A stretch of DNA of 57,429 bases from a virus (lineage: Duplodnaviria > Caudoviricetes). The notes under the pieces are model-generated. The model saw only the letters and a list, made by a program, of their open reading frames with translations. It had not been told where the DNA came from and searched no databases. Where the stretch lies: the IMG/VR virus record IMGVR_UViG_3300037427_004775, positions 1 to 57,429 of that record; one strand, given 5' to 3'. Positions 45,388 through 51,137 of this stretch are shown piece by piece. The translations under genes were made by a program, and so were the position numbers. How positions within the stretch are numbered: the first letter of the stretch is position 1; each line of letters opens with the position of its first letter.

Positions 45388-46434
45388 TTACTTGAGACCA
45401 CACATCATCATGATTGCTATTAAACCGGGTGCACCATCGTTTACATAGACACCTGAAAACAACGTATCAGCTCGACCGCCAACATAAGAAATGGCCGATT
45501 CTAGATGATTGCTAACAGAAGGTAGGTCTAGAACAGGTGTTGGGGCAACAAGCAAGAGCGATCCTGCTGAACCTTTTTGTGTAATGGATGGACAAGGTGA
45601 TCCTTTGAGGCAATTTTGATAAATTACAGAACCTAAACCACGTTGCTCCGGATCTCTTATGATTGATGTCCCTAGAAAAATTCTTCCAGATGATTTCAAA
45701 CAAGACTCTAGATCTTTAGAATCAAAAGTTTGAACAGTAGAAGATTCTGAAGCCAGCTTAAGAACATGACCCAGCATCTTTGAAAAAGCCTTATTAGCAG
45801 CTGGGTACATTCCCAACATTCCAACTTTTCCTCTGAGTAGTTTTAATTGCTTTTCGTTATCTAGAACAATATGAGGATGATCAGCTACGGATGCAAGTAA
45901 GTGATTTGAGTTAGCTTTGATGGTGGGGTTCAATAGTTCCTGAGCTGTTGGGGTGGTTGTTATATAGACAACTCTTCCGCTACCCTGTGTGGACTTTAAA
46001 TGTCTTTCAAGTGAATCATTGAGTGCTGCAGCAGAACTTCCTGTTCCTCCACCGCCTCCTGCACAAACGAAAATCCAGTCAACGTCTCCGATCTTGGTTC
46101 GTAAAGCATCTTCCACCAGCGCGCTGTTTTCAGATAAAACTGCAGTACCTAAATCAACGTTTTTTCCAACGCCATCGGCCCCTGGAATAAGAAGAAAGTG
46201 ATCTTCTTCAACATCGTCAGGTTGATCTTTTTCCGTAGTGTTTACTAGAATTGTTTTGTTGAAACCCAGGTCTAAAAATGCCTTGGCCAGTTTTCCACCA
46301 CCTCCACCCAAGCCAATAAATGCACATGAAAGCGCTGAAGCAGCTGTGTTTTCTGGTAGTAGTTCTTCGCTCTTAACTTCATCATTTTCATCAAAATGGC
46401 TTACAAAGTCAAAATCATCAAAATCTTGAGACAT
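45388..46434 (-). CDS. Tubulin/FtsZ-family GTPase (PhuZ/TubZ-like)
   Basis: FIGLGGGGGKLA, VNT, DGVGKN, GGGGGTGS signature, DNEK, FDSKDL (T7 loop). Best start is MSQDF at 46434 (GGAGG RBS); the frame is open to 46644. Confidence 0.9.
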   Translation of the reverse strand: MSQDFDDFDFVSHFDENDEVKSEELLPENTAASALSCAFIGLGGGGGKLAKAFLDLGFNKTILVNTTEKDQPDDVEEDHFLLIPGADGVGKNVDLGTAVLSENSALVEDALRTKIGDVDWIFVCAGGGGGTGSSAAALNDSLERHLKSTQGSGRVVYITTTPTAQELLNPTIKANSNHLLASVADHPHIVLDNEKQLKLLRGKVGMLGMYPAANKAFSKMLGHVLKLASESSTVQTFDSKDLESCLKSSGRIFLGTSIIRDPEQRGLGSVIYQNCLKGSPCPSITQKGSAGSLLLVAPTPVLDLPSVSNHLESAISYVGGRADTLFSGVYVNDGAPGLIAIMMMCGLK

Positions 46435-46643
46435 ATTAATTTCCTCCGAGTGTTCAGGCTCATCTTCTATATAATTAACATCTTCATGAAGTTTTTTATT
46501 CTCTTTGTTTATAGAGGCTTCATCGTCATTCATTGTTGACTTTTCATCACTGAGCACATTCTTTTTCCCGGGCTTACCATTCAAACCTCGCTTTCTTGCA
46601 TGTTCTCTAGTCATAGTAGATGTTTTTACTGTACTGGCCATCA

Positions 46644-46672
46644 ATAATAATTATAATGTTAATAGCAGTCAA
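46644..46672 (-). promoter_or_regulatory. Sigma-70-like promoter upstream of the tubulin gene
   Basis: TTGACT-17 nt-TATTAT on the minus strand. Confidence 0.5.
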
Positions 46673-47586: not shown

Positions 47587-48264
47587 TTAATCTACGACTC
47601 CATGATGATCTTTTACATCTTGAATAATGTTATGAGAATCCGGATGAAATACCACAAAAAACCCGCGTTCTTCACCAATTCTTGTTGCACACATTAAACC
47701 AGGAACGTGCTTTCCTTGTTTGCTAATATAAACATATCGAGTTTGTATTGAGTTTTTTCTGCTCATCTCCGGAGAGCTGCACAATTCACCGATCTTTGAC
47801 ATAAGTACAATATCATTAATTCTATGGGCATAAACATTATCAAGTTCTCCACAACAGTACCCAAGAAGGTCTGTCATTAATTGATTTGCTTGAAGAATTT
47901 TATGATCATTAGTCAACATCATTGCTGGAAATAACATCTTTTTAGTAAAGTTACCCGCAGCTTCAGAACTGGACATTGGATCAGCAGATATTTTAGACTG
48001 CCTTAAAAAGTAGAGAAGCTCTTCTATTTCTCTTTCTCGTTTTTTGTTCAGGGCTTCAAGCGCTTTGTGCATTTCATTTTGAACTTTTGTCAAAAGAATG
48101 GATTCGCTCATCATAATAAACCAAATAGACCCAGCCATAAGTGTTATACCTAGCGACCGACCAGTATGATTTTCCCACCCTCCAAGACAAATAGCTAGTG
48201 CACCAGCAATAAAAAGCAAAAAACTACACAGTTGAACTTGGTTCCGTGGCAAGTTAGGAAACAT
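47587..48264 (-). CDS. Membrane protein with two TM helices, a coiled coil and a PAS domain
   Basis: AMMLTNDHKILQANQLMTDLLGY...EL and YISKQGKHVP are PAS-like; no kinase output domain. Confidence 0.75.
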   Translation of the reverse strand: MFPNLPRNQVQLCSFLLFIAGALAICLGGWENHTGRSLGITLMAGSIWFIMMSESILLTKVQNEMHKALEALNKKREREIEELLYFLRQSKISADPMSSSEAAGNFTKKMLFPAMMLTNDHKILQANQLMTDLLGYCCGELDNVYAHRINDIVLMSKIGELCSSPEMSRKNSIQTRYVYISKQGKHVPGLMCATRIGEERGFFVVFHPDSHNIIQDVKDHHGVVD

Positions 48265-48370
48265 GCTAATATTATAACTTAATTAATCACCGGGTTAAAC
48301 ACTGGACGATTCCAGCTTTAGAGATATCGTCATTTGACATATAAGGTGTTATTAGTTTTTTAATTAATGA

Positions 48371-48403
48371 TTGAGGCACCTGTAATCCCGTGCCTCCCTG
48401 CGG
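48371..48403 (-). repeat. Conserved hairpin element, copy 1
   Basis: Minus strand CCGCAGG-GAGGCAC-GGGATTACAG-GTGCCTC-AA, 10 nt after the TAG at 48414. Confidence 0.92.
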
Positions 48404-48413
48404 ATTTTGAATT

Positions 48414-48629
48414 CTACTTCTTCTGAACGAATGCGTAGAGCTTCTCTGCTTCTGCAATAACATCTTCTGCCGCGTAAGGCAATATTGCCTTTCGCTGATA
48501 TTTGCTATCATTTTCTGCAGCAAAATGCTCGTTTTGTTCAAGTCGACTCGTTCTATCAGAAACAATTCCAATAGCCATACCCAGCAAATCTGTGCGGAGC
48601 TGGTACCCGCTTTTCTTTGAATCACTCAT
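48414..48629 (-). CDS. Small hypothetical phage protein (71 aa)
   Basis: MSDSKKSGYQLRTDLLGMA...DVIAEAEKLYAFV; AGGAG RBS preceded by a CA-rich tract. Confidence 0.8.
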   Translation of the reverse strand: MSDSKKSGYQLRTDLLGMAIGIVSDRTSRLEQNEHFAAENDSKYQRKAILPYAAEDVIAEAEKLYAFVQKK

Positions 48630-48659
48630 TTTACTCTCCTTTGTGTGTGTGTGTTGAGT

Positions 48660-48692
48660 GTGAGGCATCTATAATCCCATGCCTCCCTGCGG
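48660..48692 (-). repeat. Conserved hairpin element, copy 2 (compensatory C-G to U-A change)
   Basis: Minus strand CCGCAGG-GAGGCAT-GGGATTATAG-ATGCCTC-AC, 9 nt after the TAG at 48702. Confidence 0.92.
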
Positions 48693-48701
48693 CTAGGTTT
48701 A

Positions 48702-48887
48702 CTATCCGTTCTTTGTTGCTTGAACGTGTAAACGAACTTCTTGTGCTGAAGCTTTTACTTCTTGCATTGCTTTTCTAACTCTAGTACCTGCTGAGTTATT
48801 TCCACCATCATAAAATTTATCATAGTCATTTCGAACTGACTCTAAAAGACTGATCATCTCACTTAAAGTGTCTGGTGTATTGCTCAT
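48702..48887 (-). CDS. Histone H1-like Hc1-family small protein
   Basis: DYDKFYDGGNNSAGTRVRKAMQEVK; start MSNT at 48887 with AGGAG RBS. Confidence 0.82.
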   Translation of the reverse strand: MSNTPDTLSEMISLLESVRNDYDKFYDGGNNSAGTRVRKAMQEVKASAQEVRLHVQATKNG

Positions 48888-48986
48888 TGTTAATCTCCTA
48901 TTCATGAGTTTTGGAATAGCCATTCCGCTATTAGTATAAAAAATTATAGAACTAGTGTTAAATTCATCAAATTACTAGTTGAATAA

Positions 48987-49018
48987 TTGAGGCACCTGTA
49001 ACCCGTGCCTCCCTGCGG
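48987..49018 (-). repeat. Conserved hairpin element, copy 3 (1-nt loop deletion)
   Basis: Minus strand CCGCAGG-GAGGCAC-GGGTTACAG-GTGCCTC-AA, 10 nt after the TAA at 49029. Confidence 0.92.
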
Positions 49019-49028
49019 TATAGCTTAA

Positions 49029-49148
49029 TTACTCTTCAGTTGAATCACCAGAGTCAACTACTTCTGCAGTATCTGACCCGGTATCTTCATCTTTGTCACT
49101 ACACGCACATAGAAACCCAAGTGCCGCAATCGTAAGAAAATACTTCAT
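49029..49148 (-). CDS. 39-aa acidic lipoprotein (below the ORF-track cutoff)
   Basis: MKYFLTIAALGFLCAC-SDKDEDTGSDTAEVVDSGDSTEE*: signal peptide, lipobox and acidic tail; strong GGAGGTG RBS. Confidence 0.8.
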   Translation of the reverse strand: MKYFLTIAALGFLCACSDKDEDTGSDTAEVVDSGDSTEE

Positions 49149-49282: not shown

Positions 49283-49654
49283 TGGTGGACCCGGCGGGAG
49301 TCGAACCCGCGTCCGCAATAGCTTCAAAGTCAAGTCATTCACAGGTTTGTCTAATTTATTCCCAAATTAGAAAGGTAGCCACAAAATTCCCTTTTCCTAT
49401 GTAGCCTTGGAAAACCACCTGATCAAATCAGGGTAACCATTGCGATTTTTTTATTTCGCAGGATCTCTACCTGTTATCTTAAATTGGGTAATAAGGTCTT
49501 AAGCAACCCCACCGACTAAGCCGCTAAGCGGGCAGATTCGAAGTGATAATTGTTATTGGCAATTAAATTTTTGAAACCGCGTTTAAGGTCCGCTATTTCG
49601 TGTGACCACCTGCACTCTCGTTCTCTCCTACCCCGTCGAAGCCGTTTCGGGCCC
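49283..49654 (-). ncRNA. ssrA: tmRNA (372 nt), tag peptide ANNNYHFESARLAA*
   Basis: 5' GGGCCCG pairs with 3' CGGGUCC-ACCA with G3-U alanine identity; 5' UUCGAC motif; T-arm GCGGG-UUCGACU-CCCGC; tag ORF 49560-49516 ends in LAA. Confidence 0.96.
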
Positions 49655-49661
49655 TAATTAG

Positions 49662-49859
49662 TTATTTATCTTTTTCTGCATTGATCGTGGTACGAACCAA
49701 GTCAGCTGCAGCACCCTTGAGAGCTCTTAGACCTCTTCGCGCGCGCACACCTGCTGATTTATTTCCTCGTGCATTCTTATGAACATCAAGTTCAAGACTT
49801 TCAACCAGAACTTTAATTTCTTCCCACTGTTCAAGAATAGATGAAGTATTGTCTGCCAT
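49662..49859 (-). CDS. Second histone H1-like Hc1-family small protein
   Basis: DVHKNARGNKSAGVRARRGLRALK; GGAGG RBS. Confidence 0.82.
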   Translation of the reverse strand: MADNTSSILEQWEEIKVLVESLELDVHKNARGNKSAGVRARRGLRALKGAAADLVRTTINAEKDK

Positions 49860-50156: not shown

Positions 50157-50652
50157 CTTCGATCATATCCTTGTAGCTTATTTTATTATTCTCTACAAGT
50201 TCTGCTCTTGTAAATGACTCTATTTTAACTTTTGCCCCACCGAGCATTTTCATAATCTTTCCAGAAACTGTGCCTTTAAACTCTTCCCTGGTAAGTACAA
50301 TAGGCGGCGCTTCGAGACCCGTTTCATAATAAAACTGAACTTCTTCCCAAACAGGGATATCACATTCGTAAGTGTCTAGTATTTTAGCAATATTTTCTGG
50401 GATCGATGCTCTAATATCTTCTTTAGTCATTACAGAGATTGACATCTCTCTACCAGTTACGATTTCAGATTCACATACATCAGTAATGTTGTGAACGACA
50501 CCACAGTTATTGCAGTGAACAATTTTTGAAAGCACGTTGTCATCATTATCAATAACTGTAAACACTACAAACTTATGAAAAATCGGATCTTTCATTTTTC
50601 GAAACTGTGGTAAAATACAATGACATTGAATCAAGTGTTTAATACCTCTCAT
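50131..50652 (-). CDS. Hypothetical Zn-ribbon-like protein
   Basis: CHC...HCNNCG...C; ATGA coupling to def. Confidence 0.7.
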   Translation of the reverse strand: MRGIKHLIQCHCILPQFRKMKDPIFHKFVVFTVIDNDDNVLSKIVHCNNCGVVHNITDVCESEIVTGREMSISVMTKEDIRASIPENIAKILDTYECDIPVWEEVQFYYETGLEAPPIVLTREEFKGTVSGKIMKMLGGAKVKIESFTRAELVENNKISYKDMIEDGKDKNIR

Positions 50653-51137
50653 TTTAACTTCCTTAGTTTTTTCATAGCAATTCTTCTTGTATTTCTATTG
50701 ACCCTACTAAGAAATGTCTTTCCTAGTAAATGATCCACTTCATGGTGAATGCACACAGCTTCAGGCCCCGAAAAAACCTTCTTGGCCGTGGCACCGTTAA
50801 TGTCTAAGTATTCAACAGTTATCTGCATTGGCCTTGCTACATGCACGCCAATATCGGGAAAACTTAGACAACCCTCTTGATTGACTTCATTCCCGGCAGT
50901 TGAAACAATAACTGGGTTGATCATGCAGTTTGGTTGATCTTCTTCTTCTGAACAATCGAAAACAAGAATAGACTCAGTAAATCCGACTTGATTTGCTGCT
51001 AGTCCACAGCCGTTATTTTCGTACATTGTATCAATCATATTATTGATTTTATTTAACAGTGCCTCGTTGATTTCGAAAACTTCCTCCGTGGGTGTATCCA
51101 AGCATTTATTTGGATATCTTAGAATATCAAGAATCAT
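50649..51137 (-). CDS. def: Peptide deformylase
   Basis: All three motifs present: GCGLAANQVG, EGCLS, HEVDHLLG. Confidence 0.96.
   Translation of the reverse strand: MILDILRYPNKCLDTPTEEVFEINEALLNKINNMIDTMYENNGCGLAANQVGFTESILVFDCSEEEDQPNCMINPVIVSTAGNEVNQEGCLSFPDIGVHVARPMQITVEYLDINGATAKKVFSGPEAVCIHHEVDHLLGKTFLSRVNRNTRRIAMKKLRKLK

Follow-up and report, generated by a model that had tools for sequence, protein, structure and literature searches.

A nearly invariant, predicted RNA pseudoknot at the junctions of small gene cassettes in uncultured marine phages

Sites of the attC type, in which structure is conserved rather than sequence, are recognised as folded single strands and need the IntI integrase. 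The repetitive extragenic palindromic (REP) elements of Escherichia coli are credited with mRNA stabilisation and attenuation, and, as a structure less than 15 nt behind a stop codon, they have been reported to stall the terminating ribosome. For T4-type phages, a promoter-early stem-loop (PeSL) motif has been described (accessible part of PMC4122927). Here we report on a short element that occurs three times in a 57,429-base viral DNA, IMG/VR record IMGVR_UViG_3300037427_004775 (completeness estimate 16%), the whole of which is called the window below. The three copies had been noticed in the window as a covarying RNA hairpin behind the stop codons of consecutive small genes downstream of the transfer-messenger RNA (tmRNA) gene, which we refer to as the original prediction. 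Our analysis of these copies and their relatives points to an H-type pseudoknot that acts in cis on the mRNA and is located where small genes are gained, lost or replaced.

The pattern CCGCAGGGAGGCA was present exactly three times in the window, and none of 100 shuffled windows reached three matches. Every match was on the minus strand, as were the small open reading frames (ORFs) flanking all three copies. The sites originally predicted were right, but their coordinates included two extra 3′ bases, since the element reads on the minus strand. Copy 1 (48373..48404, minus strand; 59.7 bits) reads U-CC-GCAGG-GAGGCAC-G-GG-A-UUACAG-GUGCCUC in RNA sense. In copy 2 (48662..48693, minus strand; 53.2 bits) a U:A stem pair takes the place of C:G and loop 3 is AUUAUAG, while loop 3 of copy 3 (48989..49019, minus strand; 60.2 bits) is shorter by one base. 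The compensatory double change in copy 2, from which selection on the stem had been argued, was confirmed in this way. The 7-bp stem of the window copies has a folding energy of -12.7 to -13.8 kcal/mol. Copies 1, 2 and 3 follow a 72-aa gene, a gene for a protein like the histone-like Hc1 and a 39-aa lipoprotein-like gene, respectively. The distance from the stop codon of these genes to CCGCAGG is 10, 9 and 10 nt, as had been stated, which corresponds to 9, 8 and 9 nt up to the first paired base. Neighbouring copies are spaced by 289–327 nt, and each gap holds one small gene, the Hc1-like gene and the 72-aa gene, again as originally described.

Relatives of the element were collected by scanning IMG/VR with its first 17 bases. 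The exact 17-mer was found in at least 120 contigs, yielding 137 instances, and a sample collected by such a match is biased towards the consensus. The analyses drew on 136 distinct compact copies, on 131–132 copies for placement and context, and on 128 distinct rows for the counting of base pairs. A covariance model built from 113 copies comprised the hairpin only, stem 1 not being included, and later recovered diverged copies. These sequences show an RNA of the mRNA strand that acts in cis and has the predicted fold of a compact, nearly invariant H-type pseudoknot of 31 nt. Stem 1 joins N1-C2-C3 with G17-G18-N19 and is extended where two purines, at positions 4 and 16, are in contact; GCAGG forms loop 1, stem 2 joins GAGGCAY with RUGYCUC, and loop 3 is (U)UAYAG with an optional inserted hairpin. 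The 5′ arm had originally been taken as unpaired; its CC pairs with the GG of the hairpin loop, which turns the plain hairpin into a pseudoknot.

The support for stem 1 is independent, because both the alignment and the search model were fitted to stem 2 and not to stem 1. Positions N1 and N19 were Watson-Crick paired in 120 of the 136 compact copies (A:U 65, C:G 40, G:C 8, U:A 7), a number matched by 0 of 10,000 permutations. In the window the pair is U:A in copy 1 and A:U in copy 3; the G:A mismatch at this position in copy 2 is probably the scar of a crossover. The top pair of stem 2, Y15:R26, was paired in all 136 copies (C:G 72, U:A 64). Over the 128 distinct rows in pseudoknot notation, 98.8% of the cells paired and changes on both sides were seen in six of the ten pairs, while 0 of 500 shuffles reached any pairing measure and slid controls paired at 29–61%. 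Diverged copies added a change of C2:G18 to G:C (three copies), of A10:U31 to G:C (six copies) and of A14:U27 to C:G (two copies), and G9:C32 was also seen as A:U. Positions 4 and 16 changed together (G/G 105, A/A 19, A/G 4 and G/A 0 in 128 copies), with A/A marking a second subtype. One pair of stem 2 was G-U in 49 of the 128 rows and, because G-U would be A-C on the opposite strand, the selected molecule is the gene-strand transcript. The view of the original prediction that the element is a structured cis-element under selection was upheld.

Three of the ten pairs were invariant across the 128 copies, and loop 1 was GCAGG in 105 of them. In 13 copies a hairpin is inserted in loop 3 just before the conserved AYAG, and the stems of these inserts differ yet pair. 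The loop lengths of 5, 1 and 5–7 nt are compatible with both stems forming simultaneously, although covariation by itself leaves their coexistence a prediction. An alternative register of stem 1, C2:G17, was rejected on the grounds that three diverged copies flip C2:G18 to G:C. A G-quadruplex was likewise discarded, as the fourth G-run is lost where R is A, and so was a start codon within the element (the AUG or GUG of the 3′ strand), as no conserved ORF follows it. Some sequence features near or within the element were also observed. Runs of 5–10 C directly precede about one-sixth of the copies, for example L021 7508–7590 (minus strand), L027 1740–1816 and L102 2998–3041 (L and G numbers are our handles for carrier contigs and relatives), and the inserted loop-3 hairpins often have an AUCCCA loop. 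In principle, these C-runs or AUCCCA loops could pair with GGGAGG or YGGG as an alternative fold. The copy in G003 (L268 4932–4975) is decaying, with two uncompensated stem changes, and the one in G004 (L270 2287–2328), which is distant from gp32, has diverged and shows the C2:G18 flip to G:C.

The spacing seen in the window recurred in the family, the element starting 6–14 nt behind a stop codon in 106 of 132 copies. A stop codon within 20 nt upstream combined with a Shine-Dalgarno (SD) sequence and start within 50 nt downstream was found for 99 of 131 copies; nine more brought those with the next SD and start within 50 nt to 108, and the next start was usually 16–35 nt away. The element was always co-oriented with transcription and always outside ORFs. 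Its upstream neighbour was a ∼250-aa single-stranded DNA-binding protein (SSB) of the gp32 type (PF08804) in 65 of 131 cases and its downstream neighbour a RecA/UvsX-type recombinase (PF00154) in 36, with gp32 before and the recombinase after the element in 20. The genes in between were small and variable and included those for FKBP isomerases, Hc1 histone-like, cold-shock and DUF7695 proteins and lipoproteins, as well as two families of unknown identity and one gene with a weak GmrSD_N-like match. The 72-aa gene of the window belongs to one of these two families, family 5, and recurs in the gp32–uvsX interval of other phages. The main location of the element is the gp32–uvsX/recA interval of an uncultured marine phage clade, and the link to genes downstream of tmRNA, as given in the original prediction, did not hold. 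Only L294, among 40 loci scanned, has a tmRNA near the element. Every small variable gene was bounded by a copy, both in the gp32–uvsX interval and in the jumbo-phage lineage of the window. In the jumbo relative G001, gp32 is 168 kb away and has no copy beside it.

Behind stem 2, the first base was A in 117 of 136 copies and T accounted for 61–73% at positions +3 to +6. At least four consecutive T within ∼10 nt were present in 66 of 131 copies and at least three in 95. The U-run is usually separated from the stem by A and one further base, while in L030 a run of nine U directly follows the stem. None of the three window copies has a U-tract, in line with the original statement that the element is not a classical terminator. 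The A and the T-rich stretch fit an endonuclease site, a weak terminator tail and an unstructured translation leader equally. Canonical terminators, i.e. a hairpin with a U-run, follow the element in L063 and L117 and precede it in L077. In L294 (170–294, minus strand) a copy is located 9 nt upstream of a tRNA-Ala gene; other copies lie 70–300 nt from tRNA genes (L291, L277, L305).

A separate structure was observed in one subgroup with uvsX downstream (L011, L028, L037, L041, L071, L095, L112 and L116; for example L037 1057–1125). Here, a hairpin UCUCCA...UGGAGA overlaps the end of the 3′ strand of stem 2 and hides the SD sequence of uvsX. The minimum-energy fold favours this hairpin over stem 2 and, as modelled, the arrangement looks like a switch. 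An anti-SD switch was rejected as a general mechanism, as the CCUC of the element does not match the downstream GGAG and the overlap is found in this one subgroup only.

We compared relatives in which the gene content around the element differs. Gains, losses and replacements of genes ended inside copies of the element in five comparisons. The part of the window that comprises copy 3, the Hc1-like histone H1-type gene (61 aa; 48702..48887, minus strand; PF07432, 4.3e-20) and copy 2 is represented in G001 by one copy only, and the two-sided alignments overlap inside the element. The same slot is occupied by a cold-shock-domain gene (PF00313) in L294, so that it is filled by Hc1 in the window, by another gene in L294 and is empty in G001. 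One extra gene together with one extra copy distinguished L096 from L024, L020 from L016 and L099 from L102. The 5′ flank and N1 stayed with the upstream gene, whereas the 3′ half and the leader stayed with the downstream gene. In G001, L294, L203 and L072, a CA-repeat leader and the 3′ half of the element move as one unit. In the window this leader, with the SD sequence, occupies 48633..48661 (minus strand) in front of the 72-aa gene of family 5 (48414..48632, minus strand; no Pfam match), between copies 2 and 1. A (CA)n leader was seen before the family-5 gene in every lineage in which we found it (window, G001, L203, L072 and L294) and may be a translation enhancer. Upstream of copy 3, the 39-aa lipoprotein-like ORF (49029..49148, minus strand) has homologues (family 6) at the same position in G001 and L294.

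These comparisons bore out the placement at cassette boundaries proposed in the original prediction, which is PeSL-like in effect. The attC-like mechanism that had been considered alongside fared differently. A tyrosine recombinase (PF00589) was detected in none of five records, three of them complete, versus 14 of 14 control genomes, with the same first-look filter, which is of limited sensitivity, also missing gp32 in G003 and G004. The gp32 genes of these two were missed by the family search yet are readable directly, and rows without a match from that search are weak. On the count of zero in five records, an integrase-driven mechanism was rejected. Given that tyrosine recombinases were not detected, the simplest explanation is homologous exchange within the ∼31–45 nt that the junctions share, and exchange of this kind was proposed for PeSL motifs (accessible part of PMC4122927). 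With the same ∼31–45 nt at every junction, homologous recombination between co-infecting phages would cross over there, moving cassettes and at the same time homogenising the sequence of the element. Frequent exchange of this type would, we infer, partly explain its near-invariance.

A subclass with U...A was present on 42 contigs throughout IMG/VR, six of which were within the first sample of 120 contigs, and a rough extrapolation from 42 versus 6 suggests about 800 carrier contigs. With a pattern anchored in the 3′ part, the 5′ part was unchanged in 121 of 124 copies, the remaining three showing G4 replaced by A. Five records of 147–293 kb, three of them complete, held 1–4 clustered copies per genome, and the element is therefore a locus-specific feature rather than a genome-wide signal. 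In a typical carrier, gp32 was at most 35.5% identical to any protein of a cultured phage; therefore, the carrier clade is uncultured. The public runs that hold the window's own sequence were all labelled marine or aquatic. Among the matches listed for a cellular genome collection (596 Gb), there were 123 for the 17-mer on 120 contigs, which is about the number estimated for chance, and nine of these 123 had any word resembling the 3′ strand within 100 nt. The true compact elements among these listed matches were four copies, all on the 10.5-kb contig L203 of a metagenome-assembled genome, which is probably viral.

With Rfam 15 at gathering thresholds, the sole match in the whole window was the tmRNA, and a permissive scan of 48300–49100 (E up to 10) gave only SNORD74 (E 1.8) and RsaJ (E 7.7), both at chance level. 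BLASTN against 50,697 deposited phage records did not find the element and returned only partial chance matches with E of at least 0.6. The 12-letter core string occurred in no paper and literature word searches retrieved no description of the element. The accessible part of PMC10690425 reports motifs upstream of GP32 only; the element may sit unnamed among the 10,006 candidate RNAs in the supplement of that paper. Phage and gp32 go unmentioned in the main text of a bioRxiv preprint (10.64898/2026.10.21.760802). The element represents a well-supported structured RNA family for which we found neither an Rfam entry nor a description in the searchable literature, as had been supposed when it could not be assigned to a described family.

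Several other features surround the array in the window. The tmRNA gene (49283..49654, minus strand; 108.7 bits) is upstream of the array and not part of the element; its tag is ANNNYHFESARLAA and that of L294 (2488–2854, minus strand), ANNNYHFDSVRLAA, is near-identical. The neighbourhood in L294 is the same, an Hc1-like gene and then tmRNA, but has two extra genes before the cassette array. A second Hc1-like gene (49662–49859) is upstream of the tmRNA gene in the window, which also carries genes for a peptide deformylase (50649–51137; PF01327, 1.3e-43) and a tubulin/FtsZ-like protein (45388–46644; PF00091 under the cut-off), all on the minus strand. Downstream of copy 1 lies a 225-aa gene (47587..48264, minus strand) with a weak PAS-like match under the Pfam cut-off. 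Two matches to the sigma-70 consensus, identified as such by consensus only, are TTGATG-16-TATAAT (48943..48970, minus strand), 19 nt behind copy 3, and TTAACC-16-TATAAT (48271..48298, minus strand), behind copy 1 and before the 225-aa gene. The number of promoter-like matches in the window was not above shuffle expectation (13 sites versus 7.5 +/- 2.7).

The gp32 genes of carriers have features of their own. They are preceded by a near-consensus sigma-70 promoter, TTGACA...TATAAT, and then by a conserved leader hairpin, as observed in 54 gp32 leaders. The stem of this hairpin covaries, its loop is GAGAUUUG/GAAAUUAG and its tail ACUUUA/ACUAUA; examples are L024 12427–12560 and L016 5001–5130, both on the minus strand. 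It is probably the autoregulatory site of gp32, and possibly one of the motifs upstream of GP32 reported in the accessible part of PMC10690425. Directly upstream of gp32 in G003 and G004 (L268 1044–1880; L269 1308–2156), we observed a ∼280-aa protein without a Pfam match, whose glycine-rich N-terminus is similar to that of the tubulin/FtsZ-like gene of the window.

As to the role of the RNA, we tentatively favour a junction structure that would insulate neighbouring cistrons and shield the upstream message from 3′ exonucleases. According to this model, the terminating ribosome would halt just short of the fold, and the fold would provide insulation by keeping the next ribosome-binding site from being paired with coding RNA from upstream. 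The transcript would be cut in the A/U-rich tract behind the fold or at a following tRNA, whereupon the fold would block 3′-to-5′ exonucleases and give each cistron a separate stability. The element is kept where no ORF follows, namely ahead of a canonical terminator (L063, L117) or, in L294, 9 nt before the tRNA-Ala gene. Such retention favours a function at the 3′ side of the message upstream. A number of observations weigh on the other side. In L077 the canonical terminator lies upstream of the element, which is consequently present only in the leader of the next gene; this arrangement favours a function in that leader. With a terminator hairpin in place to protect the 3′ end in L063 and L117, a second barrier is redundant there. 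Moreover, the near-invariance of the element exceeds the needs of a purely structural barrier and hints at a specific partner or ligand, although the sample is biased towards the consensus. Copies are also present in assembled contigs from public RNA runs. One such contig (depth 112) extends from a copy of subtype 2 into a gene of family 5, and cleavage, if any, is therefore incomplete; this evidence is weak, as contigs cannot show RNA ends, strand or level, uncovered parts carry no information and DNA was possibly present in the library. Finally, 1–4 copies per genome of 180–293 kb do not make a general stabiliser.

The leader arrangement of L077 would fit a translational operator, in which a trans-acting protein binds the pseudoknot and covers the next leader and SD sequence. 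The candidate protein is the gp32 SSB, autoregulation of T4 gene 32 provides the analogy, and uvsX and the cassettes would thereby be tied to the level of free gp32. The order of parts, with a U/A- or CA-rich tract behind the pseudoknot and an SD sequence and AUG 16–35 nt on in 99 of the 131 copies, would suit such an operator, as would the position behind gp32 in half of the family, the near-invariant loops that suggest a specific partner and, in the uvsX subgroup (L037), the overlap of the SD-hiding hairpin with the 3′ strand of stem 2. However, carrier gp32 genes have their own, different conserved 5′ leader hairpin, the element is kept before terminators and a tRNA where nothing is translated, and in G001 gp32 is remote and without an adjacent copy. 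We consider this operator rather unlikely.

A role in transcription could take two forms, a weak intrinsic terminator or attenuator that sets gp32 above the downstream genes, or an RNA that modifies RNA polymerase as put of HK022 does. The 7-bp G+C-rich stem followed by a U-rich tract, with the T-run frequencies given above and the U9 directly behind the stem in L030, would be in agreement with the former, and the terminators just downstream in L063 and L117 form the arrangement expected of an antiterminator RNA. Nevertheless, the window copies lack a U-tract and in most copies A and one base precede the U-run; a terminator needs neither the pseudoknot nor the conserved loop 1; and the RNA-library contig crosses a copy. 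A terminator at the end of an operon was rejected, as the next gene usually starts 16–35 nt on, leaving no room for a promoter and requiring read-through, and as separate canonical terminators stand where transcription should stop. The same terminators and the copy number of 1–4 dispose of a general terminator or gene-boundary signal. A transcriptional role thus defined appears quite improbable.

In another proposal, the structure less than 15 nt behind the stop would act as a roadblock that stalls the terminating ribosome and lowers upstream output, possibly via tmRNA. The spacer in most copies has the geometry of frameshift and read-through pseudoknots, and a tmRNA gene adjoins the array in the window and L294. 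Yet most carriers show no nearby tmRNA, it is difficult to see why gp32, which is required in large amounts, should be down-regulated, and recoding by read-through or frameshifting is excluded, with frames 0, 1 and 2 in 41, 53 and 25 of 119 copies and extensions that are short and variable. We regard a roadblock of this kind as very unlikely. We also give little chance to a small riboswitch aptamer of a new type, or to a ribozyme acting in self-cleavage or processing, even if ∼20 near-invariant positions with an optional variable hairpin recall the smallest pseudoknot aptamers, one subgroup has an alternative SD-hiding pairing and Rfam returned no match. The neighbours share no common metabolic theme (SSB, recombinase, histone-like, FKBP, cold-shock, lipoproteins, nuclease-like), copies stand on both sides of cassettes, no expression platform is conserved family-wide, and the RNA contig spans a copy. 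Least credible is a purely DNA or single-stranded-DNA recombination site of the attC kind with no RNA role: cassette indels do end inside copies in all five comparisons of relatives, but the element is always co-oriented with transcription outside ORFs, the pseudoknot covariation and the frequent G-U pairs fit RNA, and the tyrosine recombinase found in every control was not detected in the five records.

Ocean viromes contain the element in abundance, and in core size it comes close to the smallest aptamers known. Two usually separate questions meet in it: how large lytic phages punctuate their early operons and balance expression there, in this case SSB versus recombinase, and how accessory genes are acquired and exchanged when no site-specific recombinase takes part. 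A fold that blocked nucleases or sensed a factor would amount to a new RNA mechanism and could serve synthetic operons as a compact insulator. Should the element be no more than a patch of homology that also has a structural role, it would still take the PeSL idea beyond coliphages and vibriophages of the T4 type, both to marine phages that are uncultured and to a pseudoknot made of RNA. More ambitiously, though we think this unlikely, the element could be an active RNA device, either a fold that stops exonucleases, as a bacterial-world counterpart of the exoribonuclease-resistant RNAs (xrRNAs), or a minimal riboswitch or self-processing ribozyme, and also an integrase-free cassette system. 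At a single universal junction encoded in RNA, lytic marine phages would then exchange small genes for nucleic-acid binding and host takeover. This conserved intergenic cassette-junction motif and cis-acting mRNA pseudoknot has a real chance of hiding a new RNA mechanism.

Among the known systems, intrinsic terminators share with the element a G+C-rich 7-bp hairpin and, behind about half of the copies, a U-rich tract. The loop of the element, however, is long (10 nt) and pairs with the 5′ flank, its U-run is offset or absent, and genes follow it immediately, with separate canonical terminators beside it; in 108 of the 131 copies a further SD sequence and start lie no more than 50 nt away, at odds with the end of a transcription unit. 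A riboswitch should be accompanied by coherent downstream genes and an expression platform, and here an SD-hiding pairing is confined to one uvsX subgroup. The fixed frame and conserved extension typical of a read-through or frameshift stimulator are also lacking. In type III antitoxin RNA (ToxI), direct tandem repeats of ∼36 nt stand beside an endoribonuclease toxin gene. The window copies, 289–327 nt apart with a gene between them, do not have this layout; a ToxN-like gene was not searched for. Like attC sites, the element bounds promoterless single-gene cassettes in an array and is strand-specific, but its sequence is nearly invariant and no integrase was found (PF00589 in none of the five records). 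With REP elements and bacterial interspersed mosaic elements (BIMEs) it shares a ∼35-nt structure just behind stop codons inside operons, whereas REPs are simple palindromes with hundreds of copies per bacterial genome, as opposed to a pseudoknot with three copies in 57 kb and 1–4 per phage genome.

Like the operator of T4 gene 32, the element is a pseudoknot of the H type that lies in a leader between cistrons, in phages encoding a gp32-type SSB, and precedes an unstructured A/U-rich tract with a ribosome-binding site behind it. The element, though, lies downstream of gene 32 and upstream of other genes and no sequence likeness was seen; rather than 5′ of gene 32, it was found 3′ of gp32 in 65 of 131 cases, and 54 gp32 leaders carry a different hairpin. 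The xrRNAs of flaviviruses and plant viruses stop the eukaryotic 5′-to-3′ exonuclease Xrn1, and their conserved nucleotides are needed for the mechanical block. With xrRNAs the element shares its small size, a pseudoknot formed when the loop of a hairpin pairs with the strand beside it, and highly conserved nucleotides. PeSL motifs, as far as the accessible part of PMC4122927 describes them, combine an early promoter with a terminator stem-loop and belong to one phage lineage. By contrast, the element is mostly without a promoter, promoter-like matches being found behind copies 3 and 1 only, so that the composite of a sigma-70 promoter and a stem-loop is absent. It is a covarying pseudoknot, near-identical across very different phages, and instead of many copies over hyperplastic regions there are 1–4 clustered copies per genome. 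The two agree in being short conserved motifs between genes, which recur at the edges of small accessory genes within the plastic regions of large lytic phages, in having no known dedicated recombinase and in marking the ends of indels between close relatives (same source for PeSL), as we observed for the element in the window versus G001, L024 versus L096, L016 versus L020, L099 versus L102, and the window, L294 and G001 together.

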